From Deltaproteobacteria bacterium (lineage in GTDB: Bacteria; Myxococcota_A; Polyangia; Polyangiales; Houyiibacteriaceae): a stretch of DNA of 27,344 bases. The position numbers and the translations under genes are program-made. The DNA lies in the NCBI GenBank assembly GCA_034670305.1, contig JAXMNT010000074.1, positions 1 to 27,344 on the forward strand. The letters are read 5' to 3'. Numbering within the stretch: position 1 is the first letter of the stretch; each line of letters begins with the position of its first letter. The notes under the pieces are model-generated. The model was not told the DNA's origin and did no database searches. It saw only the letters and a program-made list of their open reading frames with translations. This document shows positions 4,871-27,267 of this stretch, piece after piece.

Positions 4871-7800
4871 TCAAAGCGCTTCGCACCTCAACGGGCCACT
4901 CCTGCAGACGCCGAGTTCTCCCGCGTCGTCGACACAATCGTCGCCAGCTGCGACGCACGCGCCCCCGACGAAGGCTGCCACCTCCGCCGCGGTCCCGAAC
5001 AACGCATGAAGCTTCGCGAGAAACTCGACGGTCCGCGCTCGGCCTTCAAAGCTCTCACCGAATGCGTCGCGAAGGCGCACGGCGACGCCTTCGTCGTCCG
5101 GAAGCACATAGCCCAATTGCGCCATTCGCCCGCGTTGCTCGGCGGTGAGATGACTCTCGCTTGGAGGAGGGTCCCCAGGAAGGTGATCGCCGAGATACAC
5201 CGCGGTGGCCAACTGAAGGAACTGGTCGTCGCTGGCGTGTCGAACGGTCTCGAAACCGAGCCCGAACGGTTCCCGCTCAACGAATGCGCTGTCACGGAAG
5301 GCCACGTAGGTGGCCTCGGTCACGGTGTGGTCGCGCACTCGCGAGAAGTCGAGACCCTCAGAGAGCCCGGACGGTATCCGCGGGCAGCCGACCGAGCCGC
5401 TGACGCACACGAACTGGCGCACATCGGGCCGCCGACTGTCGGTGGTCGCCAGATTGACTGCGCCAAGGAGTGCGACCCATCGGCCAATCCTGGGCAAGGT
5501 GCTTGAGACTGGTGTCAGCGGCAGGAGGCGCAGCTCCGGAGTCAAGCAATCGTCACCCGGCGCGACCCCACCTGGACAGTTTCCCTGGAACAGGTCTCGG
5601 TGAACGACGCGGGCACCCTCGCAATCACCCGGCGAACAGTCCAACCAGGGACCGAGGAGCGACCCGGTCCGGGTCGGGAAACCGCCTTCGATCACCGACT
5701 CCACTTCGGGCGCAAAACCATCCCACACACTCGCCGACGTGCCGAGCGTGTCGCGGCTGGTCAGCACCTCCGTCGCGAAGACGGCGTCGGGCCAGGAGCC
5801 GACTGCCGAACGTGGATCGCCGACCGAGTCGAAGGGACGGAACGTTCCGATAGGCAGGCTCAGATTGACGAGGGCACCCGTTGCGGGCTCGAGCCGGTCG
5901 GCGCTGGTCCCGAGGTCACCAAGGTCCGCCGCCCAAGGACCCGCGACGATCCTGGAGACGAGGTTTGCGGTGTCCGCGACCGCGAAGCCGAGGTCGTATC
6001 CGACGAACGCGCCGTCGCGTGCCGCCAGATCGTCCTGGAAGAACCCGGCCGCGATCCGCACGGTCGGTTCGAAGATGCGCGCGAGTTCGGCCTGGTGCTG
6101 GCCCGGCGAGAACGAGGCGCGGCCGAGTCGATGGGTACGGACGACCCATGTCTGCTCGTACCGCAGCGCCCGGTCCCTCAAGACGGCGCGCGCACTCGAC
6201 CCGTGGTCGCGCAACGTGCAGCGCGGCAACCGATCGTCGAGGCCACACGACTGAAACTCGATGGCCAACCAGGGCTCTGGCATCGCCGCGAGGTCGTCGG
6301 TGAACGATGAGCAAACGGATGCGCCATTGCAGCTCTGCACCAGACCGCTCGCAGTGTTGCCCGCTGTCAGTTCGGCAGCACGTGCGCCGCTGGCGCTGTA
6401 CGGGCACACGATGGCGGCGCTGCAGCTCTCACCACCCCGGTACGTCCGGACCGCGACGCGGCGGGTGTTGAGCGGCGTGACGTCCGCCACCGGCAGCGGT
6501 GCGCGGTTGGTGCCGCTCGGGTCCTTGGTGTTGTCGTAGATCTCGCTGAGCCCGAGGTACGCGTGGGCCAGTGCAAACGAGTCGTAGCGACCGGTAGAAC
6601 GCATTGGAAGCACCGCGCTTCGTGAGACGTCGAGCACCGTCGAGGTCTGCGCCTCGGCGGCGCCGGCACGCTCCCGCTCCAGGAGTACGGCGTCAAACGC
6701 ACGGCGGTGCACGTCCATGTCCACGAAGCGGTCGTCGGGGTCGGGGCTGGCCGGCAATGCGATCGAGGCGTCGGTTGCCAGCGCGAGGTCCCCATGGTTC
6801 GCGCCGTCGCTCGAACCTGCGAGGTTTGGCTCCAAGCCGAGGGCGCGGCCGACCGAGAAGAGCATCGCGCCCCGTGCGATTCGGCGGCTCACCGCAAAAC
6901 GGAACCCATCGCGGCTCGTGGACTCGGCGAGCAACGCCAGCGTCGAATCCCATGCGTCGGAACCGGAGCGACGCAGCATGCCGGCGCGCAGCGCATCGAG
7001 CTCCTCCGACCGCCAGGCGTCGAGGCGCTCGCCGATCGGTCGGCGGATGGGCGAACCGGCGCGAATCATCGCCTCGGTGGCGTCGCCCACCGCTTCGGTG
7101 TTCGCGAAGTACGCCGCGTCTTCGAGACCCAAGAGTTCTTGTTCGATCTCGGTGTCGCGCAGGCGACCGATGCGCATCTCGGACAACAACCGCCCTTCCG
7201 GTCCATCCAGCAGGGCAGCGCGTGCGAGCGCCGCGGCCCGGCGGCTTTGCATGGCAGCCCGCGCGTTGGCGTTCGTCACGACGCCTGCATGAACGGCAGG
7301 TGCGGCGGCGGTGGGCGGCTCCACCAGACCTGGCTGATCGATGTCGGTCGCCCCTTCGGTCGTTCCGTCCACGTAGAGGTCACGCCAGCGAAGGGCGAGG
7401 TCGACGAGCGCGTCGAGGGAACCGGTGCCCAACCGAACCGAGCCGCCGCGTGCTTTGCCCGTGACCGGGTCGCCGGTGATGTCCCCGAAACCGAGGAACC
7501 GTTCGGTGGCATCGGCACCGATGGAGAGGACGCGTGGATCGCCCGTGCCGAGGTAGGCCGGATCCGCATCGGCATCGAGACGTCGGAAGATGCACTCATC
7601 GCCGACCAGCTGCGCGCCGCTCCAGGCGCCGAAGTCAGCCGCGGCGACGGCACCCTCCCAGTTGGGATCGGCGGATGCATCGATGTCGATGTGGCACCGG
7701 ATCGGGTTCTGCGCCCCAGCAGTTTCAGCGGCCTCCGGGGTCAGGAGCGGATCGTAGGCACCCGGACAAGTTGGGTTGAGCGCGTCCGCGCAGAAGCAGT

Positions 7801-9118
7801 AGCCATTGGGGTCGGTGTTCTGACAGGAGACGGCTGGGTAGCGTGCAGGGTCTTCCCCGCGTTCTGCCCGCAGCGCACCCGCGAGTGCGTGGTTCCAGGA
7901 GGCGAGTGCCTCGAGGGTGGGGCGGAGCAGGTGCGGCGAGAGGCCGTCGCCGAACCGCCAGAACAGTCGCCGGGCACCGCGGTCGCCTGGAGCGACTCGA
8001 ACCGGTGCACCCGATGCATCCCGAATGGGGTTGCCCTCGGCATCACGGCCGAACCACACGTCGAAGAGATCGTGCCGAACCGTGGGCGCACCGACTCCGC
8101 GGCGTGGGTCCCCCTCGGGCATGGACTCGTCCGTGACGGACATCGTCAAGCTGGTGACCTGTGCGCTGGCGAGTTCGGGCTGTGTCGTGGGCAGGTAGTC
8201 TTCTTCGCCCCGCCGGAGAAACGTGGTGCGGATCCAAACGCGCCCTTCGCATCCCTCGTCGGTGCACGACTCAGAAGCGATTCGTTCCGCCCGCAACCCC
8301 GAGAGGCCGTAGAGCTCGCCAACCTCCAGTCGACCGACCAGAGGTACTTCGAGCGGCGAGCAGTCGGGAGATGAAGCGTCCGCGCACGTGAAGCGTCGCG
8401 AGCGGGGCGTCGCGGTGCTCGGGTCGGACCCAGGGGGCGCGGTCAACGCCACCAGCCCGCGGACCAACCTGGTCGGCGTGGTGAACTCGAGTGAGGAAGA
8501 CGTGGCACTCAGATCGAGACGAACATGGGTGTGTTCGTCCCAAGGCAACCGGACGTTGAGTGGCCGGAACGAGCCGTCTGCTTCTTCGATTGCGTCGAAG
8601 TGCTCCAGGATCGGAACCACCGCGAGAGGGGTCGGGTCGTCTTCACGAAACGCGATCAACGCAGACTCCGTCACCTCGAGCCGCACCCGTCCCGACGCGT
8701 GCCCGAACGCACCGTCTCGGGGATCGTGTCCGAAGGAGCCCGTGTTCATGAACCGCGCGGCGTTGTCGTCGGTCGCCACCACGACCTCGACCATCGCCCA
8801 ACTTCCCGTCTCGAGGTCGGCGGTCGCCACGATCGCGTCTCCATCGACTGGGGGCGTCGCACCGTCTGGAAGGGGCGCATCGATTGCGGCGTCGGTCGGC
8901 ACGCCTGCGTCTCGGTTTGGACCGGGCAGCGTGAGCACTCCTCCGTCCGGAAGAAGACAGCTCAGACCATCCGATGTTGTCGTCGTTCCCTCTGGGCAGA
9001 CGCAGTAGCTACCGGTTGGACCATCGACCTGATCGAACGGACCACAGAAATCTTCATCACCACACGCGAAACCGAGGAACGCGAGCGCCACACAAACGAG
9101 ACAGTTGAGCCAAGACAT
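4871..9118 (-). CDS. Large lipoprotein related to myxobacterial zinc-dependent metalloproteases (metzincin-like), catalytic motif degenerate
   Basis: Lipobox FLGFA-C. FSVGRALGLEPNLAGSSD aligns by eye with HExGHxLGLxHNFAGSxD, followed by STVLDV (SVMDY-like) and GRYDSFAL. Start 9118 has TATGGT 7 nt upstream. Confidence 0.65.
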   Translation of the reverse strand: MSWLNCLVCVALAFLGFACGDEDFCGPFDQVDGPTGSYCVCPEGTTTTSDGLSCLLPDGGVLTLPGPNRDAGVPTDAAIDAPLPDGATPPVDGDAIVATADLETGSWAMVEVVVATDDNAARFMNTGSFGHDPRDGAFGHASGRVRLEVTESALIAFREDDPTPLAVVPILEHFDAIEEADGSFRPLNVRLPWDEHTHVRLDLSATSSSLEFTTPTRLVRGLVALTAPPGSDPSTATPRSRRFTCADASSPDCSPLEVPLVGRLEVGELYGLSGLRAERIASESCTDEGCEGRVWIRTTFLRRGEEDYLPTTQPELASAQVTSLTMSVTDESMPEGDPRRGVGAPTVRHDLFDVWFGRDAEGNPIRDASGAPVRVAPGDRGARRLFWRFGDGLSPHLLRPTLEALASWNHALAGALRAERGEDPARYPAVSCQNTDPNGYCFCADALNPTCPGAYDPLLTPEAAETAGAQNPIRCHIDIDASADPNWEGAVAAADFGAWSGAQLVGDECIFRRLDADADPAYLGTGDPRVLSIGADATERFLGFGDITGDPVTGKARGGSVRLGTGSLDALVDLALRWRDLYVDGTTEGATDIDQPGLVEPPTAAAPAVHAGVVTNANARAAMQSRRAAALARAALLDGPEGRLLSEMRIGRLRDTEIEQELLGLEDAAYFANTEAVGDATEAMIRAGSPIRRPIGERLDAWRSEELDALRAGMLRRSGSDAWDSTLALLAESTSRDGFRFAVSRRIARGAMLFSVGRALGLEPNLAGSSDGANHGDLALATDASIALPASPDPDDRFVDMDVHRRAFDAVLLERERAGAAEAQTSTVLDVSRSAVLPMRSTGRYDSFALAHAYLGLSEIYDNTKDPSGTNRAPLPVADVTPLNTRRVAVRTYRGGESCSAAIVCPYSASGARAAELTAGNTASGLVQSCNGASVCSSFTDDLAAMPEPWLAIEFQSCGLDDRLPRCTLRDHGSSARAVLRDRALRYEQTWVVRTHRLGRASFSPGQHQAELARIFEPTVRIAAGFFQDDLAARDGAFVGYDLGFAVADTANLVSRIVAGPWAADLGDLGTSADRLEPATGALVNLSLPIGTFRPFDSVGDPRSAVGSWPDAVFATEVLTSRDTLGTSASVWDGFAPEVESVIEGGFPTRTGSLLGPWLDCSPGDCEGARVVHRDLFQGNCPGGVAPGDDCLTPELRLLPLTPVSSTLPRIGRWVALLGAVNLATTDSRRPDVRQFVCVSGSVGCPRIPSGLSEGLDFSRVRDHTVTEATYVAFRDSAFVEREPFGLGFETVRHASDDQFLQLATAVYLGDHLPGDPPPSESHLTAEQRGRMAQLGYVLPDDEGVAVRLRDAFGESFEGRARTVEFLAKLHALFGTAAEVAAFVGGACVAAGDDCVDDAGELGVCRSGPLRCEAL

Positions 9119-9161
9119 GGCGCGCACCATATCGCGCTTCGAAAGGAACGCACACGGAGCA

Positions 9162-9208: not shown

Positions 9209-11413
9209 CTATGCGGGTTCGATGCGGACCACCGCGTTGTAGTCGGGGACGAGGCCGCCGGGGTCGTGGCGGCCGGTGGGGATGAGTACGTTGGCTTCGG
9301 GCCAGTGCATCTGCACAGAACCGGGCGTCACGCGCACGACGAACGCGCGGCCATGGAAAGAGCCGTGTTCGTTGTGCACGCGGATCGGGTCGTCGTGTTC
9401 GACGCCGAGTCGGCGGGCGTCGCGCGGGCTGATGAGGACGTGGTCGCGGGCGGCGCCGGTGAGCTGGTCGACCGCGGACTGAATCAAGCTGTTGAATTGT
9501 TTGCCGCGCCGGGTGGCGAGGTGGAGCAAACCGTCTTCGAGCCGGCGGTCGGGCGCGGGGACGAACTCGAACTGGCCTTTGCCGCTCGGCGTCCCGAACG
9601 TGCCCTCCGCGCACAGATGGCGGCCGCCCCACTGGAACTGATCGCCCTTCTTCTCGAGGCTGGCGATCTCTGCGTACGCGGGAAGCGTCGCGGCGATGTC
9701 TTGCCGAATGGCCGCGCTGTCTTCGTACGCGAGAAACTCGGTGGTCTCGGGACGGGCCGCGCGCACGACGTCGGTGACGATGCGCCACTCCTCCCGCGCT
9801 TCGCCGATCTCGTGGCCGGGCACATGCGGGCTGTAGATCACGCGGCGTTCGGTGGTGGTCTCGGTGAGGCCGCCGCGGTGTTCGTACCGGGTGCGGGCCG
9901 GAAGCAAGTACGCGACCTCGGCCGGCTCGACGAGCATGGAGGTGGTGAGGAAGAGATCCTGGTGGATGCGGAGCGGGATGGTGCCGAGCGCGGCTTCGAC
10001 CCGCGCGGGGTTCGGAAGCACGTCGAGGAACGCGCCGCCGATCGCATAGAGCACTTCGAGCTGTCCTTCGGACGCGGCTTCCATCATCGCGACGGTGTCC
10101 CAGCCGACGATCGCCGGCGGGCGGAAGCCCCACAGAGACTCGAGCTCGTCGGCGGATGCTTCGGTGATCGGCCGGCCCGGGAACGTGGTCGCGTAGGCGC
10201 CCATCTCCGCGCCGCCCTGCACGCCCGAGTGGCCGCGGATCGGCATCAGGCCGGTGCCGTTGCGGCCGACCCAGCCCTGCGAGAGCGCGAGCTGACAGAC
10301 CTGCGCGATGGTGTCGGTGCCGTGGCTGTGCTGGGTCAAGCCCATGCTCCACACGAAGATCCCGTTGCCCGCCGATTCGAGTTCGTCGGCGAGCGCGATC
10401 ACCTCGGCGCGTTCGCACCCGCTGCGCGCGATGAGCTCGTCGAGGTCTTCGAAGTCGAGCGCGCGTGCGTAGGCTGCGTAGCCTTCGGTGTGCGCGTCGA
10501 TGAAGTCGTGCTGGATGGCGCGACGACCGATGAGGATCTTCTGCACCGCTTGGGCGAGCGCCATGTCGCCGCCGGAGGCGACGTGCACGAAGCGGTCGGC
10601 GATCTCCGTGCCGAGCACCGCGCTGTCGGCGTTCGAGGGGATCCAGTACTTGCGCATGCCGGGCTCTTCGTAGGTGTTCACCACCACCACGCGGGCCCCG
10701 CGTTTCTTCGCTTCGTAGAGGTACTTGAGCGCGACCGGCTGGTCGTTCGCGGGGTTGCTGCCCCAGAACACGATGACGTCCGTCTCGTACCAGTCGATGT
10801 AGCTGCAGGTGCTCGCCGCGGCGCCGAGCACCTTCTTCATCGCGGCGGTGGATGGGCTGTGGCAAAGCCGCGCCGCGTTGTCGATGTGGGGGGAGCCGAG
10901 CGCGCGCCAGGCTTTCTGAGCGGCGAAGTAGATCTCGTTCGTGATGCCGCGCGAAGTCATGTAGCAGGCGCTCTTCATCGGATCGGCCGCGCCGAGCCGC
11001 GCACCGATGCCTTCGAGCGCTTCGTCCCAGGAGATGCGGGTGTAGCCGGCTTCGCCTTTGCGCCACCGCATCGGGTACGGGATGCGGCCGAGCTCGCGGA
11101 GCTCTTTCGGGGTCTTCGCCTTCAAGGACTCGACGTCTTCGAGCAGGCGCACGTTGAGCGCGCCCATCGTGTTCACCCGCAGCAGGTTGAGCCGCACCAG
11201 ACACAGGTGGGTGCCGTCGATGGTCCAGTCCTTCAGACCGCTCGTACCGAGCGCACATCCGTCGCAGACCCCGTCGTTGAGGATGCGCCAGGCGTAGTTC
11301 CACTTGCCGGCGTTGTCCCAGAGGATCTGCGCCATCTCGAGGTAGTGGTGGGGTTTGGTCGCTCCGATGCCAAAGGGCAGCTTGGAGTCGAGAACCGGCA
11401 GAGACTTCGTCAT
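9209..11413 (-). CDS. FdhF/YdeP-family molybdopterin oxidoreductase
   Basis: GVCDGCALG, ARLCHSPS, WSMGLTQH, PIRGHSGVQG, TETTTERR and a C-terminal TRRGKQFNS..WPEANVL..PDYNAVV molybdopterin-dinucleotide domain. ATG 11413 preferred (TG-G-CACCAT 7 nt upstream); 11422 is the alternative. Confidence 0.92.
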   Translation of the reverse strand: MTKSLPVLDSKLPFGIGATKPHHYLEMAQILWDNAGKWNYAWRILNDGVCDGCALGTSGLKDWTIDGTHLCLVRLNLLRVNTMGALNVRLLEDVESLKAKTPKELRELGRIPYPMRWRKGEAGYTRISWDEALEGIGARLGAADPMKSACYMTSRGITNEIYFAAQKAWRALGSPHIDNAARLCHSPSTAAMKKVLGAAASTCSYIDWYETDVIVFWGSNPANDQPVALKYLYEAKKRGARVVVVNTYEEPGMRKYWIPSNADSAVLGTEIADRFVHVASGGDMALAQAVQKILIGRRAIQHDFIDAHTEGYAAYARALDFEDLDELIARSGCERAEVIALADELESAGNGIFVWSMGLTQHSHGTDTIAQVCQLALSQGWVGRNGTGLMPIRGHSGVQGGAEMGAYATTFPGRPITEASADELESLWGFRPPAIVGWDTVAMMEAASEGQLEVLYAIGGAFLDVLPNPARVEAALGTIPLRIHQDLFLTTSMLVEPAEVAYLLPARTRYEHRGGLTETTTERRVIYSPHVPGHEIGEAREEWRIVTDVVRAARPETTEFLAYEDSAAIRQDIAATLPAYAEIASLEKKGDQFQWGGRHLCAEGTFGTPSGKGQFEFVPAPDRRLEDGLLHLATRRGKQFNSLIQSAVDQLTGAARDHVLISPRDARRLGVEHDDPIRVHNEHGSFHGRAFVVRVTPGSVQMHWPEANVLIPTGRHDPGGLVPDYNAVVRIEPA

Positions 11414-11450
11414 CGCGCGCATGGTGCCACATGGGAACCCGACCGCGGAA

Positions 11451-11558
11451 AGCGCCAGCGGCAGCGGCAGCGGCAGCGGCAGCGGTAGCGGTAGCGGTAG
11501 CGGCAGCGGCAGCGGCAGCGGTAGCGGTAGCGGTAGCGGTAGCGGTAGCCGTAGCGGA
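11451..11558. repeat. Hexamer microsatellite (GCGGCA/GCGGTA)n
   Basis: Alternating blocks of AGCGGC and AGCGGT units. Confidence 0.95.
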
Positions 11559-11560
11559 GA

Positions 11561-11588
11561 AGGCCGGCGCCCAGTTGGACGCCGGCCT
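11561..11588 (-). terminator. Hairpin just after the four-helix-bundle stop codon
   Basis: AGGCCGGCG (11561-11569) and CGCCGGCCT (11580-11588) form a perfect 9-bp stem 6 nt beyond the stop. The U-tract is weak. Confidence 0.5.
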
Positions 11589-11594
11589 CACCCG

Positions 11595-11909
11595 TCAGCG
11601 GCTGAGCTTGTAGAGCATCGCGCAGACGTGGTCGCACCGGTCGAGCAGCCCCGCGTCGAGTTCCACGTACCCGAAGACCTCCGCGAGCTGCATCGCTGCC
11701 TTGAGCTCGCTGCACTCCCCATACGCAATCGAGAACTTGTCATGAGACCGCAGCCCCCGCGCTTGCCGAGCCTCCGCAATGTTCAAGACCACGCTCTGCG
11801 CCGCCCGCTGCATCTGGGAAGCGAGCGAAGCGTCGTACTTGCGCACGGCCGGCAGCACTTGAGCGCGCAGCAAACGCACGAGTTCGAAAGAAGTTTGTAG
11901 AACGATCAT
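11595..11909 (-). CDS. Four-helix-bundle protein (23S rRNA intervening-sequence protein / bAvd-like family)
   Basis: 104 aa with signature LASQMQRAAQSVVLNIAE..F.IAYGECSEL..AML. SD-like AGGGG about 7 nt upstream of the ATG. Confidence 0.9.
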   Translation of the reverse strand: MIVLQTSFELVRLLRAQVLPAVRKYDASLASQMQRAAQSVVLNIAEARQARGLRSHDKFSIAYGECSELKAAMQLAEVFGYVELDAGLLDRCDHVCAMLYKLSR

Positions 11910-11942
11910 CGGAGACCCCTGTGTGAAGACGACCGAGCGACA

Positions 11943-12072
11943 TGCCCGGCGGCCGCAGGCCGCCGTCGTCTGGCGGGTCAGGGGTCAAGGGCGAAGCGGC
12001 GCGCAGGCGCCGGGCCGCAGGCCCCCTTGAGGCCTGGCACGCCAGACGACACGCTTGATCACCCGCCGGGCA
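11943..12072 (+). promoter_or_regulatory. Branched hairpin, putative Frpo-like ssDNA promoter for the four-helix-bundle gene
   Basis: Long imperfect stem 11965-11991/12024-12050 capped by GCGAAGC, GGCGC-GCAG-GCGCC and GGGCC-GCA-GGCCC mini-hairpins. The 3' arm carries TTGAGG (12027-12032), 17 nt, then CACGCT (12050-12055). Confidence 0.65.
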
Positions 12073-12105
12073 CCCCACCCCTGCTTCGCACCCAACCCCG
12101 AGTCC

Positions 12106-12131
12106 GAAGAAGCGGAAGCGTCAGCGGAAGC
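12106..12131. repeat. Short degenerate GCGGAA hexamer run
   Basis: GAAGAAGCGGAAGCGTCAGCGGAAGC, in the same orientation as the array at 11451-11558. Confidence 0.55.
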
Positions 12132-12218
12132 AGGTGGCCTGGCCGGTTCGGGGAATCGCGGGGGTTGCTTGGGGGTTTGGTTGCTCCCATGCTCCGCGCG
12201 CCCATGATTCGCCCCTCC

Positions 12219-12626
12219 ATGCGCTGTCTTGCGCTCCTCATTCCCGTGCTCGTCGCGTGTGCCCCGGAGATCGGGGACGGCTGCGAGACGTCGGTGGACT
12301 GCTCGGTCAACGGCGAGCGCATCTGCGACCGCACCCAGCCCGGCGGCTACTGCACCATCCAGGGGTGCGAACCCGACACCTGCCCCGACGGAGCCTCCTG
12401 CGTGGAGTTTCGCGGCATGCCAGACCGCACCTCGGTGACGTTCTGCATGGACGGCTGCGGGAACGACGGCGATTGCCGAACCGACTACGTCTGCGTCAAC
12501 GACATGGACGCGCGCCTGCTCGAAGGTTACCCGGACGATCTCGACTCCATGTCACTCGCACGGGTGATCGATCTGAACGAGGGCCGCGCCGACGACTCGT
12601 TCTGCGTCACCGACCCCGACATGTAG
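12219..12626 (+). CDS. Small Cys-rich lipoprotein (myxobacterial type)
   Basis: Lipobox IPVLVA-C; mature CAPEIGDGC..DC..RICD.TQPGGYCT..GC..CP pattern. The earlier in-frame starts (12027 etc.) run through the hairpin region and look non-coding. Confidence 0.8.
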   Translation: MRCLALLIPVLVACAPEIGDGCETSVDCSVNGERICDRTQPGGYCTIQGCEPDTCPDGASCVEFRGMPDRTSVTFCMDGCGNDGDCRTDYVCVNDMDARLLEGYPDDLDSMSLARVIDLNEGRADDSFCVTDPDM

Positions 12627-12655
12627 GTCGCCGGAAGCAGGGCATGTAGGTGGGC

Positions 12656-12816
12656 GCTCCTGCTTCCGCTTCCGCGTCCGCTTCCGCTCCCGCTTCCGCT
12701 TCCGCTTCCGCTTCCGCTTCCGCTTCCGCTTCCGCTTCCGCTTCCGCTTCCGCTTCCGCTTCCGCTTCCGCTTCCGCGTCCGCCAGCCGCAGCCGCTTCC
12801 GCGCTTCCGCTTCCGC
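12656..12816. repeat. Hexamer microsatellite (GCTTCC)n
   Basis: Long near-perfect tandem run between the lipoprotein and slt genes. Confidence 0.95.
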
Positions 12817-12880
12817 GACTGCCCTTTTCCGGCCGCTGGGAAATGAAGGCGGCCCCGCCAGACGTGGTAACAGCGTTCCC

Positions 12881-15040
12881 GTGGCGCTCCGTCTCCCCAG
12901 CCCTGCCGGCCACCCGGCCACCCTCGCTGTGCTGGCGGTGCTTGCGCTCGCCACGACCGCAGCCGCCCAGGAGCCGCCGGTCCCCGAAGCCGTCCGCCTC
13001 CACGTCGAACACGGGCAGTTCGCCGAAGCCCTCGAAGCCCTCGGAAGCGCCACCGCAGAAGAAACTCCGGCCCACCGCTACTTGAGAGGCCGGCTGCTCG
13101 AGTGGCTCGGTCGCGACGCCGAAGCCGCCGAGGCGCTCGACCTCACCGAGACCCTGCCCGCCAGCATCCTCGAAGACGCCGCGCTGCGCCGAGGCTCGCT
13201 TCTGACCCGCCTCGGCCGCTGTGAGCCGGCGCGCCCGGCACTGCTTCGCGTCCGCCGCACCCGAGACGCACAGGTCGCGCGCGCGCTTATGGCGCAGTGC
13301 CTTCTCCGAGACGCGACCGACACCGAGTCCCGCGCCGCCGCCATCACCGCCTTGCGCGCCGTCGCCGCCGAAGCCGGCCGGGACGTCGACACCTTCGCGG
13401 TGCAGGCGCTGCTCGCCGAGGCGCTCGATCTTCAAGGCGACGCACCCGCCGCCACCACCATCCGCCGCCGCCTCTACATCGAACGGCCGGAGCACCCGGA
13501 CGCGGCGCTGCTCCCGGTGCCCACCGATCTCTCCATCGACGAGACGCTGCGTCGCGCGGACGAGCTGGCCGATGCGCTCCGACACGCGGACGCGGTCGCG
13601 CTCCTCGACGGCGGTCCACCGTCCGGCGCCTCGCGCTCCCAGCAGGCCACCTGGCTGCACCAGCTCGGCATGGCGCTGTACAAGACCCGCCACCACTACG
13701 ACCGGGCCGCGGAGATCTTGCGCCGCGCGAGCCGGCTCGGTGGCAGCGACGCCCTCGAGGACGAGTTCCACGCCGCCCGCGCGCTCTCCCGCGCCGATCA
13801 AGACGCCGACGCCATCCGCGCGTACCGCCGCTTCGCCCGCACCCACCGCCGCCACCGGCGCGCGGCCGAAGCCGAGTACCTCGCGGCCTGGCTGGAGCTG
13901 CGCACCCGCCCCGCCGCGGGCCGTCGCGCCTTCGAACGTTACCTCCGCGGCGCCGGCCGCACCGACGGCCGCCGACGGTCCAACGCGGAGTGGCACCTCG
14001 GCATGGGCGCGTTCGATGCCGGCAACCACACCGAAGCCGCCCGGCGCTTCACCGACTACGCCGGCAACAGCCGCGACCCGATGCGGGGCGGTCGAGGTCT
14101 GTACTGGGCCGGGCGTGCGCACCACCTCGCCGGACGCACGACCCGCGCCGCCGCGCTCTACCGGCAGGTCCGCGCGATGGACCCGCTGCACTGGTACGGG
14201 CTGCACGCGGAGAAGCGACTTGCGGAGCTCGGCATCACCGAAGACATCCCGCTCCGCGCCGCTGGCGAAGCGACCCCGCTCCCGACGCCGCCCCTGCCCG
14301 CCGACGTCGAGTTGCTGCTCGGTCTTGGCCTCGCCTCCGACGCCCGCGAACGCCTCGCTCGACTGGAGTCCTCCCTGCGCGAGGCTGCACCGCGCGGCCG
14401 ACGCGCGGAGTACATCGTCGCGGCCTACCAGCGCGTTGGCGATGCCTACCGGGGTTTCCGGCGCGCGGTCGCGGCCCGTTCCCAGCTCAACACCGCTCCG
14501 TCGGGTTCGGCCGAATGGGCGTGGCGTGGCGCCTACCCGCGTCCCCACGAGGCGGTGGTCCGGCGCGAAGCCGCGCGGCACGGCATCCCGTTCGAACACG
14601 TGTACGCAACGATGCGCCAGGAGAGTCAGTACGAACCGCAGGTCGTCAGCCGCGCCGATGCGATCGGTCTGTTGCAACTGATCCCGGCGTCCGCACAGAG
14701 CGCGGCGCGACGGCTCGGCGTGCCCTACGCGCGCGACCGGCTCTTCGACCCCGAGTACAACATCCAGCTCGGCGTCGGTGAGATGGTCGGCCTGTGGCGA
14801 CGCTTCGACGGCGCGATCCCGCTGGTGATCGCGGCCTACAACGCGGGCGCGGCGCGGGTCACCCGCTGGATCCGCGAACTCGGTCCCGCCGAGCTCGATC
14901 TCTTCGTCGAACGCATCCCCTTCGACGAGACCCGCAACTACGTCCGGCGCGTCACCTCCCACTTCGCACGCTACCGCTACATGGAAGACCCCACCGGCCG
15001 ACCTCCGCTGCCCGCACGCGTCCCCGTCTCCGAGGACTGA
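12881..15040 (+). CDS. slt: Soluble lytic murein transglycosylase (Slt-like, TPR + SLT domain)
   Basis: Signal peptide, TPR-like helices, and SLT motifs MRQES, AIGLLQL, AAYNAG, ETRNYV. GTG 12881 chosen because TG-G-TAACAG lies 7 nt upstream; the ORF-track start at 12650 reads through the microsatellite. Confidence 0.88.
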   Translation: MALRLPSPAGHPATLAVLAVLALATTAAAQEPPVPEAVRLHVEHGQFAEALEALGSATAEETPAHRYLRGRLLEWLGRDAEAAEALDLTETLPASILEDAALRRGSLLTRLGRCEPARPALLRVRRTRDAQVARALMAQCLLRDATDTESRAAAITALRAVAAEAGRDVDTFAVQALLAEALDLQGDAPAATTIRRRLYIERPEHPDAALLPVPTDLSIDETLRRADELADALRHADAVALLDGGPPSGASRSQQATWLHQLGMALYKTRHHYDRAAEILRRASRLGGSDALEDEFHAARALSRADQDADAIRAYRRFARTHRRHRRAAEAEYLAAWLELRTRPAAGRRAFERYLRGAGRTDGRRRSNAEWHLGMGAFDAGNHTEAARRFTDYAGNSRDPMRGGRGLYWAGRAHHLAGRTTRAAALYRQVRAMDPLHWYGLHAEKRLAELGITEDIPLRAAGEATPLPTPPLPADVELLLGLGLASDARERLARLESSLREAAPRGRRAEYIVAAYQRVGDAYRGFRRAVAARSQLNTAPSGSAEWAWRGAYPRPHEAVVRREAARHGIPFEHVYATMRQESQYEPQVVSRADAIGLLQLIPASAQSAARRLGVPYARDRLFDPEYNIQLGVGEMVGLWRRFDGAIPLVIAAYNAGAARVTRWIRELGPAELDLFVERIPFDETRNYVRRVTSHFARYRYMEDPTGRPPLPARVPVSED

Positions 15041-22530: not shown

Positions 22531-23777
22531 GCCGTCGCGTGGGTTGGTTCGCGGCGTGGGTGGCGGTGTGGTGGGTGGTGTGCGCACCGCATGCGGTTGC
22601 GCAGCAAGCGGGAGCGGAAGCGGACGCGGACGCGGGAGCGGGAGCGGATGCGGACGCGGGAGCGGACGCGGAAGCGGAAGCGGACGCGGATACGGACGCG
22701 GAAGCGGAAGCGGAAGCCGATGCCGACTCCGATGCCGAAGCCGATGCCGAGGCCGAGGCCGATGCCGATGCCGAGGCCGATGCCGATGCCGACGCCGATG
22801 CCGATGCCGAGGCCGATGCCGATGCCGACTCCGAAGCCGATGCCGATGCCGATGCCGATGCCGATGCCGATGCCGATGCCGATGCCGAGACCGAAGCCGA
22901 CTCGGTTTCAGAAGCAGGGGCAAGGGCAGGGGCAAGGGCAGGGGCAAGGGGCGGTGGCGATGTTGCGGATCCGGAGACCGTGTCCAACCGTCGGGCACGT
23001 CGGCGGGCGGCGCAGCGGGATTGGAGCTGGGCGGATGGGCCCGAGCGCGGCTTCTTTGCGGCGACGATCGACCTCGGGTTTCTCTACATCCGTCCCCGGC
23101 TCAGCGCGGGATGGGGACTGCCGCACACGCGGTGGATCGGGTTCGACGCCAACCCGATCGTGGCACCGAGCGCGGCCGGGTTCTACGCGGGGGCGCGCAT
23201 CGCCCATCCGATCGTGAACCTGCGCGCGGGCGCGCGCTATGGCGTCGCCTACAACCGCAGCTACTTCGACCCGATCCCGAACGACCAGAGCTTCACCACC
23301 CGCGAGTGGGCGCGACGCGACGACACCACCGCGAGCTACCTCTCGCTCGAGACCGAGCTCACCCTGAACATTCCCGCGGGCCCCGGTCGCATCCTCTCGG
23401 AGACCTCGCTGACCTACGTCAGCCGGGTCCCCGAAGACAAGTTCGTCCTCGAAGAGACCCTTCACATCATCGTCGATCCGCCCTGGGTGTGGCGGACCCG
23501 CTTCGGCTACGAAGCCCGCTTCGCCGACGGCGACGTGCGCATCGCGGCGGTGGGCGAGTTCCTCCACGTGCCCAAGCGCGACATGCTCGTCTTCCGCGCC
23601 GGCCTGCTCATCCGCCTCAACGTCACCGCCCAGCTGCAACTGCGCGCCAGCTACGTGGCGCCGATCGAACGGCGCGACCGCCTCGGCTTTCGCGGCGGAG
23701 ACTTCGGCCTCATCGGCCTTCGCTACCGATGGGCCACCGGCGCCAACCCACCGAGCGCCGAAGCGCAGGGCCGGTAA
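22527..23777 (+). CDS. Exported protein with an acidic (Ala-Asp/Glu)n linker and a probable outer-membrane beta-barrel domain
   Basis: ATGA coupling and a signal peptide, then about 115 low-complexity residues, then alternating beta-strand patterns ending IGLRYRWATG. Confidence 0.7.
   Translation: MSRRVGWFAAWVAVWWVVCAPHAVAQQAGAEADADAGAGADADAGADAEAEADADTDAEAEAEADADSDAEADAEAEADADAEADADADADADAEADADADSEADADADADADADADADAETEADSVSEAGARAGARAGARGGGDVADPETVSNRRARRRAAQRDWSWADGPERGFFAATIDLGFLYIRPRLSAGWGLPHTRWIGFDANPIVAPSAAGFYAGARIAHPIVNLRAGARYGVAYNRSYFDPIPNDQSFTTREWARRDDTTASYLSLETELTLNIPAGPGRILSETSLTYVSRVPEDKFVLEETLHIIVDPPWVWRTRFGYEARFADGDVRIAAVGEFLHVPKRDMLVFRAGLLIRLNVTAQLQLRASYVAPIERRDRLGFRGGDFGLIGLRYRWATGANPPSAEAQGR
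22608..22952. repeat. In-frame hexamer array (GCGGAN, GCCGAN, then GGGCAA/GGGCAG)
   Basis: Tandem hexamers inside the CDS 22527-23777. Confidence 0.9.
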
Positions 23778-24070
23778 GCCGAGCCGAAGCCGAAGCCAAA
23801 GCCGAAGCCAAAGCCGAACCAGAAGCCGAACCAGAAGCCGACGCCGACGCAGAAGCAGAAGCAGAAGCAGAAGCAGAAGCAGAAGCCGACGCAGAACCCG
23901 AACCCGAAGCCGACCCGGGAGCGGCCACGGAAAGCGGACGCGGAAGCGGAAGCGGAAGCGGTAGCGGACTCGGAAGCGGACTCGGAAGCGGAATCGGGAG
24001 CGGAAGCGGAAGCGGTAGCGGAAGCGGTAGCGGAAGCGGACTCGGAACCGGAAGCGGAGGCGGAAGCGGC
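23778..24070. repeat. Compound hexamer microsatellite (GCCGAA, GCAGAA, GCGGAA/GCGGTA)
   Basis: Begins immediately after the TAA at 23777. Confidence 0.93.
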
Positions 24071-25259: not shown

Positions 25260-25264
25260 GCCCC

Positions 25265-25434
25265 GTTTCCGCTTCCGCGACCGCGACCGCTTCCGCTTCC
25301 GCTTCCGCGACCGCTTCCGCTTCCGCTTCCGCGACCGCTTCCGCTTCCGCTTCCGCTTCCGCTTCCGCTTCCGCTTCCGCTTCCGCTGCCGCGACCGCTT
25401 CCGGTTCCGCTTCCGCTTCCGCGACCGCTTCCGC
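25265..25434. repeat. Hexamer microsatellite (GCTTCC/GCGACC)n between convergent genes
   Basis: Fills nearly the whole gap between the patatin and serC stop codons. Confidence 0.95.
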
Positions 25435-26526
25435 TCAGCCGTTCTTGGCGGCGAAGTCCTTCATGAACGCGGTGAGGGTCTGGATGTTCTCCGGGTCCAT
25501 CGCGTTGTACATCGAGATGCGGATGCCGCCGACCGAGCGGTGGCCCTTCATGTTCACGAGGCCGTTCTTCTTGCCCTCGTCGAGGAACGCCTTCTCGAGT
25601 TCCGGCGTCGGCAGGTTGAACACGACGTTCATCACCGAGCGCGAAGCCTTCTCGATCGGGCAGCGGAAGAACTCCGCGTTGCCGTCGATCGTGCCGTAGA
25701 GCATCTCCGCCTTCGCGCGGTTGCGCTTCTCCATCGCGGCCGCGCCGCCCTGGGCCTTCACCCACGCGAGCACCTTGCCGACCGCGTAGATCGCGAACAC
25801 CGGCGGCGTGTTGTGCGTGGAGCCCTTGGACGCGATGAAGTCGTACCGAAGCATCTCCGGAAGCTCTTGGTTGCCCTTCGCCATCAACGACTTCTCGATG
25901 ATCGCGAGCGTCACACCGGCCGGCCCGAGGTTCTTCTGCGCGCCGGCGTAGATGAGCGAGAACTTCGACACATCGACCGGACGCCAGAGCATGTCGCTCG
26001 ACATGTCGGCGACGAGCGGCGCTGCGGTTCCGGAAGACAGCACCTCGGGGAACGAGTGGTACTGCACGCCCGCGATGGTCGCGTTGCTGGTCAGGTGCAC
26101 GTACTTGGCGTCCGCGCTCAGATCGAGCTTCTGCGGCGCGCGCACGTACCGCTCGCCTTCCTTGCCCGTCGCCGCGTAGCGGGGTTTGCCGTAGAAGCCC
26201 GCCGCCACCTGCGCCTTCTTCGACCAAGAGCCGGTGTCGACGTAGTCGGCCACGCCGCCGCCGAGGAAGTTCATCGGCACCATCGCGAACTGGCCGCTCG
26301 CCCCGCCCTGGAGCCAGAGGACCTCGTGGGTGTCCGGCACCGCGAACAACTCGCGCACGAGCGCGGTCGCGGTCTCGTGGACCTCGGTGTACTCGGCGCC
26401 GCGGTGGCTGTGCTCGAGCAAGGACATGCCGGAGCCCTTGAAGTCCATCATCTCGTCGCGAATCTCTTCGAGAACGGAGACAGGAAGGGTGGCGGGACCG
26501 GCGCTGAAGTTGATGACTCGACTCAT
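25435..26526 (-). CDS. serC: Phosphoserine aminotransferase
   Basis: NFSAGPA, SHRG, LQGGASGQF, DTGSWS, DMSSD, YAGAQKNLGPAG (PLP lysine), NTPP, RS.MNV.F, KGHRSVGGIR.S.YNA. Confidence 0.97.
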   Translation of the reverse strand: MSRVINFSAGPATLPVSVLEEIRDEMMDFKGSGMSLLEHSHRGAEYTEVHETATALVRELFAVPDTHEVLWLQGGASGQFAMVPMNFLGGGVADYVDTGSWSKKAQVAAGFYGKPRYAATGKEGERYVRAPQKLDLSADAKYVHLTSNATIAGVQYHSFPEVLSSGTAAPLVADMSSDMLWRPVDVSKFSLIYAGAQKNLGPAGVTLAIIEKSLMAKGNQELPEMLRYDFIASKGSTHNTPPVFAIYAVGKVLAWVKAQGGAAAMEKRNRAKAEMLYGTIDGNAEFFRCPIEKASRSVMNVVFNLPTPELEKAFLDEGKKNGLVNMKGHRSVGGIRISMYNAMDPENIQTLTAFMKDFAAKNG

Positions 26527-27207: not shown

Positions 27208-27267
27208 CAGGTCGCTCAAAAGCGACCTGCTCCCTTGCCGTTGCCCTTGCCCGTGCCCTTGCCCGCG
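27204..27267 (+). repeat. Composite repeat element: CTAG + hairpin + (TTGCCC)n
   Basis: CTAG (containing the Lrp stop), then a perfect 11-bp stem AGCAGGTCGCT-CAAA-AGCGACCTGCT, then about 5 degenerate TTGCCC units and GCG. Confidence 0.7.

Follow-up and report, generated by a model that had tools for sequence, protein, structure and literature searches.

A conserved branched hairpin as a candidate control element of a multicopy PF05635 gene cassette in a myxococcotal genome

Frpo/ssi elements, whose defining features are given in the accessible part of PMC11541004, belong to the leading regions of plasmids, and small DNA hairpins of the GCGAAGC and CCGAAGG kind, which are exceptionally stable, occur in the priming sites of single-stranded DNA (ssDNA) and in the hairpin promoters of phage N4 (available excerpt of PMC13037366). 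Proteins of the PF05635 family are functionally uncharacterised except for Avd, and occur in rRNA intervening sequences, CRISPR loci and diversity-generating retroelements, according to the accessible portions of 10.1101/2024.02.27.582315 and PMC3936711. Here, we describe a chromosomal gene of this family and the 130-nt branched hairpin that precedes it at positions 11943-12072 of a 27,344-nt stretch of DNA (hereafter the window; contig JAXMNT010000074.1, or C74, of assembly GCA_034670305.1 from a Deltaproteobacteria bacterium). All coordinates without a contig name are those of the window in + strand numbering; the gene under study lies on the - strand, so the window + strand is its template, or antisense, strand. 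A first-pass annotation of this DNA had taken the hairpin for an Frpo-like promoter, aimed at one chromosomal gene. It is nearly certain from the present analysis that the 130-nt hairpin is a conserved 5′ control module of a multicopy gene cassette, with 37 loci in this genome and a presence in at least five further genera of its class, and the supposed singular feature of one gene is thus one member of a large repeat family.

The pairings, loops and hexamers named in that annotation were recovered base for base. On the + strand, a stem of 11 perfect pairs (P2) joins 11965-11975 (GTCGTCTGGCG) to 12040-12050 (CGCCAGACGAC) and continues through P3 (11977-11982/12033-12038) into P4, in which TCAAGGG at 11985-11991 pairs with CCCTTGA at 12024-12030. 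The fold is topped by three apical mini-hairpins (11991-11997, 11997-12012 and 12013-12023), the sequence there reading GCGAAGC at 11991-11997, GGCGC-GCAG-GCGCC at 11998-12011 and GGGCC-GCA-GGCCC at 12012-12024. At the base, the outer pairing P1 joins 11943-11952 (TGCCCGGCGG) to 12063-12072 (CCGCCGGGCA) and meets competition from a local hairpin at 11947-11965 (CGGCGGCC-GCA-GGCCGCCG). The branched hairpin is drawn for both strands from the folds, the consensus structure and the pair counts, and a covariance model of the module (R1) matches 11942-12073 on the - strand with 116 bits.

The stretch 11935-12080 was folded as DNA and as RNA, and each fold was compared with 200 dinucleotide shuffles. 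As DNA, the + strand reached -52.4 kcal/mol, against -38.9 ± 3.1 kcal/mol for the shuffles (z -4.4), and the - strand reached -49.2 kcal/mol (z -2.9), with 0/200 shuffles as good in either case; RNA folds gave z -4.3 for either strand. The GNA loops do lie on the + strand only, as had been pointed out, but each is necessarily a TNC loop on the - strand, and the two strands fold about equally well. Scanning 11000-13000 with Rfam 15 gave five matches with E of 1.1-7.9, far under the gathering scores and none of them overlapping 11943-12072, and a terminator scan of 11400-12700 (GC hairpin plus T-run) gave no site in what is a divergent-intergenic region.

The same module recurs throughout the genome, which was searched in full (7.93 Mb, 105 contigs). 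A 146-nt query found nine near-full copies at 88-100% identity, plus partial copies, and tblastn with the window protein found the 37 loci, of which nine belong to subfamily A, 14 to B and 14 to C, with 33 of them intact and encoding 103-104 amino acids. A profile search with three subfamily alignments (nhmmer) gave 43 module matches, 35 of which stand directly upstream of a gene start, while the other eight are truncated remnants (gene or 3′ arm deleted) or have an insertion between module and gene. Model R1, which was built from the shorter alignment A3, gave 38 matches. As four more divergent PF05635 matches were found that tblastn had missed (C14:16486-16722, C15:131727-131960, C1:298705-298866 and C83:18949-19137), the family in this genome exceeds 37 loci.

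The repeated unit measures about 620 bp, with window 11458-12080 aligning at 84-90% to eight other loci, and the cassette runs in the order hexamer array, small TTC-loop hairpins, branched hairpin, ribosome-binding site, 104-aa PF05635 gene, GC hairpin and hexamer array. An array lies within 600 bp upstream in 34 of 38 tabulated loci, mostly 180-350 bp from the ATG, and within about 240 bp downstream in 24 of the 38, mostly at 28-71 bp. The array unit follows the subfamily: CCGCTT-type on both sides in A, CAGCGG/CAGCAG-type upstream and TCGGCT-type downstream in B, and GCCGAA/GCCGAT-type in C. Between subfamilies, apical hairpins have been swapped and arm segments exchanged as blocks (GGGCG/CGCCC vs ACCCG/CGGGC). 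Of the 23 cases with reliable neighbours, as judged by crude gene calls based on GC content at third codon positions (GC3), about 15 have an upstream neighbour that runs the same way as the cassette gene, and about eight, the window copy included, have a divergent one.

Purifying selection acts on the cassette genes, with ratios of nonsynonymous to synonymous change (dN/dS) among paralogues of 0.09 in A, 0.13 in B and 0.06 in C at a dS of 0.45-0.63. The hairpin together with the leader (165 nt) shows p-distances of 0.09-0.14 vs 0.25-0.32 at third codon positions, and the hairpin changes 2-3 times more slowly than these positions. Pair analysis was conducted on 29 of the 33 intact copies, leaving out B_C28, B_C68 and C_C10 (insertions) and C_C26 (deletion), and RNAalifold gave 30 pairs, 11 of them with compensatory changes. 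Pairing was kept in 97.2% of 867 cells, compared to 86.6% in shuffles and 35-46% when the partners were slid by 1-3 columns; double changes occupied 93 cells vs 30.6 expected, and the covariation score was 0.282 vs 0.085, neither value being reached in 500 shuffles, although these statistics overstate independence because the copies are related. The structural conservation upstream of homologous genes that the first-pass annotation had looked to was thereby borne out. Since the architecture is common to three subfamilies whose stems differ in sequence, the folded single strand is the state that has been selected, and our confidence is high that selection maintains the hairpin as a module of the cassette.

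The gene is also multicopy in relatives. Matches were found in 17 of 31 genomes (this one included), with 30 in G012, 16 in G002 and 15 in G013, and in a sample of the phylum PF05635 genes occur in 22 of 61 genomes, usually one to five per genome. In the sister genus represented by G012, the copies are about 50% identical in protein and have the layout array, hairpin with GTAAAGG...CCTTGAC, and gene, with GGG/CCC compensatory swaps in the hairpins. G013, G015 and G027 share a GTCAAGG...CCTTGAC core, whose internal loops hold the conserved blocks GTGCTCG and CTGCGCTC and whose apical hairpins have TTC loops; the core also occurs in G118 (another family), in G270 (another family of the same order) and in G293 (same class). 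Hairpins of a different make, perfect over 20-25 bp, ending 2-8 nt before the ATG and with the ribosome-binding site in the 3′ arm, precede the genes in G002, G018, G046 and G008 (z -5 to -7.5), and the typical single-copy family members elsewhere have no hairpin. Under strict filters, model R1 found the module in 6 of 61 family genomes, mostly in this one, a count that is no measure of spread because the diverged modules of G012 were missed. The simple pattern TMAAGGN{20,50}CCTTGAC, run over 401 genomes of the phylum, was discarded as unspecific, its matches in G149 and G203 being mostly non-palindromic, probably coding, and in genomes without a PF05635 gene. In other genera, too, PF05635 genes are flanked by arrays, of other units. 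Convergent pairs of PF05635 genes from two subfamilies, 18-70 bp apart, are frequent in relatives G002 (e.g. C6:420084-420350 on + and 420368-420673 on -) and G012 (e.g. C1:7848143-7848451 on + and 7848519-7848830 on -). In the one-contig genome of G012, a rough count by eye, to which no weight is given here, puts about 10 copies head-on to replication and 5 along with it, if coordinate 1 is the origin.

What distinguishes the two strands of the module is a pair of promoter-like boxes. On the template strand at the window locus, a -35-like TTGAGG (12027-12032, +, antisense to the gene) has its TTGA within P4 and its GG in a 2x2 internal loop, and a -10-like CACGCT follows 17 nt later (12050-12055, +). 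This -10 had been described as mostly unpaired, and in the minimum-energy DNA fold its A (-11) is indeed unpaired, opposite a C, but its first C (-12) closes the 11-bp stem P2 as its final pair, and CGCT is weakly paired in an alternative helix. The gene-sense strand carries TTGACC (11983-11988, -), then 17 nt, then CGGCGG, and so has no usable -10, as the first-pass annotation had claimed for this locus and as now holds in every lineage examined.

The antisense pattern, TTGAGG/TTGACG/TTTACG followed after 16-18 nt by (C/T/G)AnnnT, was found in 29 of 35 modules of this genome, at a chance rate of 0.014 per strand, in 12/12 hairpin-bearing loci of G270 and G293, in 7/7 core-bearing loci of G013, G015 and G027, and in the one locus (1/1) of G118. 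Its sense-strand counterpart was found in 0/35 modules here, 0/16 in G012 and 0/24 in other relatives, nor was there any in G270/G293 or G118. The sense strand does have CCTTGAC, invariant in 27 of 29 aligned copies, but with a CGGnGG-type sequence 16-18 nt later. The A and T of the -10-like box (A19 and T23 of alignment A3) are invariant or nearly so in 28-29 aligned copies while the bases around them vary, which is as expected of -11A and -7T. The triloops are similarly one-sided, with TNC outnumbering GNA by 88 to 2 in the sense strand of 35 modules, compared to 1049 vs 1046 genome-wide; the template strand therefore carries the GNA loops. No block common to the lineages was found upstream of the hairpin in the alignments.

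The antisense strand of nine representatives from four genera was folded with DNA parameters. In each of these folds the -35 box lies inside the stem; in 8/9 the stem ends at -12 with A(-11) unpaired opposite a C; 11-15 unpaired nucleotides follow -12, beyond which P1 closes again in this genome; and the distance to the ATG from the template base that faces -11 is 35-57 nt. Judged by sequence and predicted fold, the boxes have the geometry of a fold-dependent promoter and this geometry is conserved across lineages, with the exception of G012.

The reading we favour, tentatively and with less than even confidence, is that a fold-dependent promoter on the template strand drives the gene. As the arms are kept complementary by selection, a single strand folds, and the template strand may do so either as ssDNA or as the extruded arm of a cruciform. 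The only sigma-70-like elements would be those on the 3′ arm of this strand. In relaxed duplex DNA these boxes face outward, with the gene behind them; an outward promoter for the neighbouring gene was considered and rejected, the neighbour being co-directional with the cassette gene in about 15/23 cases. In the folded strand, by contrast, the -35 would sit in the stem, the stem would end at -12, A(-11) and T(-7) would be exposed in the unpaired stretch of 11-15 nt, and P1 would close downstream again in this genome. Such a shape would resemble a pre-opened promoter, which is likened to fork-junction and bubble templates. RNA polymerase could then read down the 5′ arm into the gene, and a start about 12 nt beyond -11 would give a 5′ untranslated region (UTR) of about 23-45 nt with the ribosome-binding site inside it, so that the gene would be transcribed from its own module in the folded state only.

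Several observations weigh against this proposal. Six modules of this genome lack the box pair: one is 5′-truncated, three have insertions, C_C78 has its 5′ arm replaced, and C_C16 makes the sixth. Two have the insertion between the boxes, and all but the 5′-truncated copy still have genes of full length. G012 keeps the hairpin and A(-11) without T(-7), its genes are intact, and just 1/16 of its copies has an antisense box pair, of another type (TTGACG-18-GAGCCT). As A-N3-T is self-complementary, nAnnnT also exists on the sense strand (AAGCGT, GATGGT, CAGCGT), there with a poor -35 (TTGCTG, 15 nt away, in B and TTGGCT, 16 nt away, in C) or, in A, without one. The -35 matches the consensus at 4-6/6 positions and the -10 matches TATAAT at only 2-3/6, and a consensus promoter scan of both strands of 11400-12700 gave no site, the weak -10 failing it. 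Neither wobble pairs (a single sense U.G is conserved, and per subfamily one or two C.A pairs, antisense G.T) nor DNA-parameter energies (within about 1 kcal/mol in most copies, with no consistent difference) favour one strand over the other. Furthermore, 17 of 24 homologue loci in other genera carry other hairpins, and in several of these the 3′ arm contains the ribosome-binding site, which fits an RNA role there. Cruciform extrusion is slow for a chromosomal palindrome that is GC-rich and has a centre of 30 nt, and we know of no single-stranded life stage of the cassette loci.

Should the fold-dependent promoter be real, it would fit into a broader picture that we consider speculative. A chromosomal gene family of about 35 members per genome, in several families of the class, would have its promoter only in the folded template strand, and the PF05635 proteins would be made where and when the locus is single-stranded or strongly supercoiled, as in replication gaps, during repair or in incoming DNA. 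The boxes in relaxed duplex would fire harmlessly outward, and the hexamer arrays would be part of the unit, possibly as landing pads for recombination.

The strongest competing explanation, a serious one though held with somewhat less confidence, places the hairpin in the sense RNA. Transcription would come from upstream, by an unrecognised promoter of the gene's own or by read-through, and the hairpin, folded in the 5′ UTR, would be cut in processing of the RNase III type, as in the rRNA intervening sequences with this gene family, or would stabilise the mRNA, or would block or insulate translation of read-through transcripts. The fixed distance from hairpin to start codon in 35/43 matches, the pairing conserved with compensatory changes, the sense U.G conserved at the end of helix 2 in 28/29 copies, and the branched shape with conserved junction bases, typical of functional RNAs, would all be at home in such a leader, as would the co-directional upstream neighbours (about 15/23) and the hairpin that G012 keeps without the box pair. 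The long hairpins with the ribosome-binding site in the 3′ arm in G002, G018, G046 and G008 fit an RNA role there. Members of the protein family itself have been described in rRNA intervening sequences, which are cut out at a stem (accessible parts of PMC4990558 and 10.1101/2024.02.27.582315). However, the DNA upstream of the hairpin has neither a conserved block nor anything promoter-like in any lineage examined, read-through is impossible at the loci with a divergent upstream neighbour (about 8/23, the window copy among them), and the element has no match in Rfam. An RNA leader also leaves unexplained the invariant TTGAC with the A and T of one strand at 16-18 nt, and the 88:2 bias of TNC over GNA loops; to our knowledge, UNC triloops have no special stability in RNA.

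A role in the spread or priming of the cassette is unlikely. The hairpin would here be a site at the DNA level, either the target of a recombinase or transposase or an ssi-like primer site for copying and integrating the cassette, perhaps through recombination between hexamer arrays. The cassette is dispersed and multicopy and has left deletion remnants; arrays specific to the subfamily stand on both sides; and apical hairpins have been swapped and arm blocks exchanged, including GGG vs CCC in G012. Frpo is reportedly both promoter and primer site, going by the title of Masai and Arai (1997). Mini-hairpins with GNA loops are typical of ssDNA origins and ssi signals, and RNA polymerase primes at the single-strand origin of pT181 (available excerpts of PMC13037366 and PMC5714925, respectively). 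Against this, a dS of 0.45-0.63 marks the copies as old, and purifying selection acts on each of them, which does not look like recent transposition; neither terminal inverted repeats nor target duplications were seen. No dedicated enzyme is linked to the cassette: eleven Y1-transposase elements have unrelated inverted ends of 150 bp of their own, and none of the three reverse transcriptases lies next to the window copy. The constant position of the hairpin 5′ of the gene, in one orientation, points to expression instead.

We consider it equally improbable that the module is an ordinary control region of duplex DNA, in which an outward-facing promoter serves the small hairpins and the array, or an operator binds a dimeric regulator, and folding is irrelevant. 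Promoters are the commonest cause of such boxes, TTGACA/TTGACG-N16-GACGAT in G293 and G027 is a reasonable duplex promoter of the sigma-70 type, and small GC hairpins that follow closely on the outward side could end its transcript. Yet neither a promoter nor an operator needs complementarity of the arms over about 30 bp with compensatory changes, the outward direction meets the neighbour's 3′ end head-on in about 15/23 cases, and a gene under selection would be left without any promoter. That the palindrome is a chance product of GC-rich sequence can be dismissed, for while high-GC DNA folds well in silico (the shuffles already reach about -39 kcal/mol), chance is ruled out by z -4.4 with 0/200 shuffles as good, 43 copies, change slower than at synonymous sites, covariation and conservation across genera.

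The remaining parts of the cassette at the window locus are as follows. The gene occupies 11595-11909 (-) and encodes a 104-aa four-helix-bundle protein assigned by profile matches to PF05635 (23S_rRNA_IVP; E 2e-14, 54.2 bits, cut-off 33.8) and TIGR02436 (E 3.9e-15, 56 bits, cut-off 24). Its nearest solved relative is PDB 2gsc_A (E 2.1e-6), and none of the anti-phage defence profiles of PADLOC 2.0 matched it at E 0.1. The motif GxxRxxxSxxxNxxE of the family (available text of PMC3936711) is present as RAAQSVVLNIAE at residues 35-46, with its first G replaced by Q. In all paralogues, the first ten or so codons end in A or T (window 11880-11909: ATG ATC GTT CTA CAA ACT TCT TTC GAA); the gene-wide GC3 is 0.81. 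Between hairpin and gene lies the leader (11910-11942, -), delimited from the alignments, which has a purine-rich ribosome-binding stretch, in the sense direction ...CACACAGGGGTCTCCG ATG, and the block ATGTCGCTC common to subfamilies A and B. Just past the stop codon, a GC-rich hairpin with a 10-nt loop (GGCCGGCG / CGCCGGCC, 11563-11588, -) is terminator-like, without a T-run, and persists in a deletion remnant on C18. The hexanucleotide array 3′ of the gene, found with the tandem-repeat program TRF, has GGCAGC/GGTAGC units on the + strand (11457-11557), and upstream a short remnant of an array with GAAGCG/GGAAGC units (12107-12133), under the TRF threshold, takes the position of the CCGCTT-type array of other subfamily A copies.

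Hexamer arrays are abundant well beyond the cassettes. Merged arrays of period 6 or 12 number 2,097 in this genome, with a total of 200 kb and a median of 38 bp, and lie in many intergenic spacers; their commonest units are AAGCCG (384), AAGGGC (346), ACGGGC (98) and ACGCCG (96). In the window they stand at 47-79, 919-1005, 11457-11557, 12662-12816, 22606-22900, 22914-22952, 23782-24069, 25263-25435 and 27232-27264. Two subfamily-B hairpins have a structured insertion of 72 nt in the 5′ arm (C28:6971-7042 and C68:36197-36268), which sits between the -35- and -10-like boxes and has no other copy in the genome, and further insertions are present in C_C10 and C_C19. A transposase element of about 1.25 kb (Y1_Tnp, PF01797), with a protein of 230-245 aa and inverted repeats of about 150 bp at its ends, is present in eleven copies on contigs C20, C31, C38, C68, C1, C11, C59, C14, C55, C15 and C63; the copy on C68 adjoins a hairpin remnant, yet a link with the module was rejected, as the sequences are unrelated and all eleven elements own their inverted ends. 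Reverse transcriptase (RVT_1) matches number three, on C23, C10 and C67, with none on the window contig, and the subfamily-C cassette at C67:13298-13609 lies 5 kb from one of them (C67:18832-19467), possibly by coincidence. Seven DNA sequencing runs, and no RNA run, were found to contain the locus; in the four best of them, short contigs broke at the arrays and the repeated cassette, with no piece that bridged them and nothing of use on variants or joints.

The neighbourhood is that of an ordinary chromosome. The window has genes for a DNA-alkylation repair enzyme, MopE-motif proteins, a molybdopterin oxidoreductase, SLT, Lgt-like and YggU proteins, a TonB-dependent receptor, a patatin and an aminotransferase, and among them there is no relaxase, type IV secretion system, ssb or psiB. 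The divergent neighbour of the cassette (12189-12626, +) encodes a cysteine-rich protein of 145 aa with a signal-like N-terminus and no match in Pfam or NCBIfam, and an open reading frame of 1419 aa spans 4871-9130 (-).

A conserved, selected and structured module in front of dozens of paralogues gives a first cis-element handle on the PF05635 family, and we regard it as a candidate new cis-element of a widespread, uncharacterised gene family. The literature on PF05635/TIGR02436 contained no description that we could find of the hairpin module or of multicopy hexamer-array cassettes, as far as main texts go (supplements not covered). If the fold-dependent promoter is correct, transcription that depends on the folding of one strand would extend from the leading regions of plasmids and small ssDNA replicons to ordinary chromosomal genes, and the module would be a built-in reporter of local single-strandedness or supercoiling of the DNA. 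If the hairpin acts in RNA instead, it would be a new candidate structured RNA motif linking free-standing cassettes to the rRNA intervening sequences with the same gene that are excised at a stem. In either case, the 2,097 hexamer arrays and their tie to the cassettes merit study.

Among known systems, 23S rRNA intervening sequences share the protein, PF05635 (S23p), and are small, selfish-looking insertions with a long stem (accessible parts of PMC4990558 and 10.1101/2024.02.27.582315). The cassette differs in lying between protein genes, with no rRNA match in 11000-13000, in having its stem wholly 5′ of the gene and not enclosing it, and in being flanked by hexamer arrays. PF05635 and the family name also occur in the available text of PMC10053308. 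Unlike a diversity-generating retroelement, the window copy has no reverse transcriptase and no template or variable repeat beside it. The Avd protein of those retroelements is, we presume, a member of PF05635 and a four-helix bundle like the cassette protein.

REP/BIME palindromes and attC sites are likewise repeated imperfect palindromes that act as folded single strands, attC being strand-selective and variable at its apex. REPs occur in hundreds of copies 3′ of genes, and attC sites have RYYYAAC/GTTRRRY at the hairpin base and form arrays beside an integrase. The module has instead the base helix GCCCGGCGG/CCGCCGGGC and stands in single copies 5′ of one gene family. The single-strand origins of rolling-circle replicons, the minus-strand origin of filamentous phages such as f1 and the promoters of phage N4 resemble it in presenting folded ssDNA to an RNA polymerase and in their GNA/GAA nuclei (excerpted text of PMC13037366 and PMC5714925), but their task, on small replicons, is to prime DNA synthesis or to serve a polymerase of the phage, whereas the module precedes a chromosomal protein gene. 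In total, the module is not an rRNA intervening sequence, a diversity-generating retroelement, an attC site, a REP element, a terminator or a known Rfam family.

The module also has a likeness to Frpo/ssi elements. As in those, a long imperfect hairpin is predicted in one strand, the boxes would aim the host RNA polymerase at the hairpin base so that the 5′ flank is copied, the -10 region is unpaired or mismatched, and the arrangement is strand-specific. Of the Frpo-like promoter that the first-pass annotation proposed, this geometry has stood, with the stem ending at -12/-11 in 8/9 representatives; membership of the group and a conjugative context have not. When 11935-12080 was compared by blastn (word 11) with 72,556 plasmid records, nothing matched at E 1e-3; the module is found in a chromosomal housekeeping context without transfer genes and in about 40 copies per genome, and the gene downstream is PF05635 rather than ssb, psiB or an anti-defence gene. 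Its -10 matches at only 2-3/6 positions, and in place of an A+T-rich UP element the stretch apical to TTGAGG (11992-12026) consists of GC-rich mini-hairpins. By analogy, then, the module appears to follow the logic of Frpo/ssi elements without being one of them.

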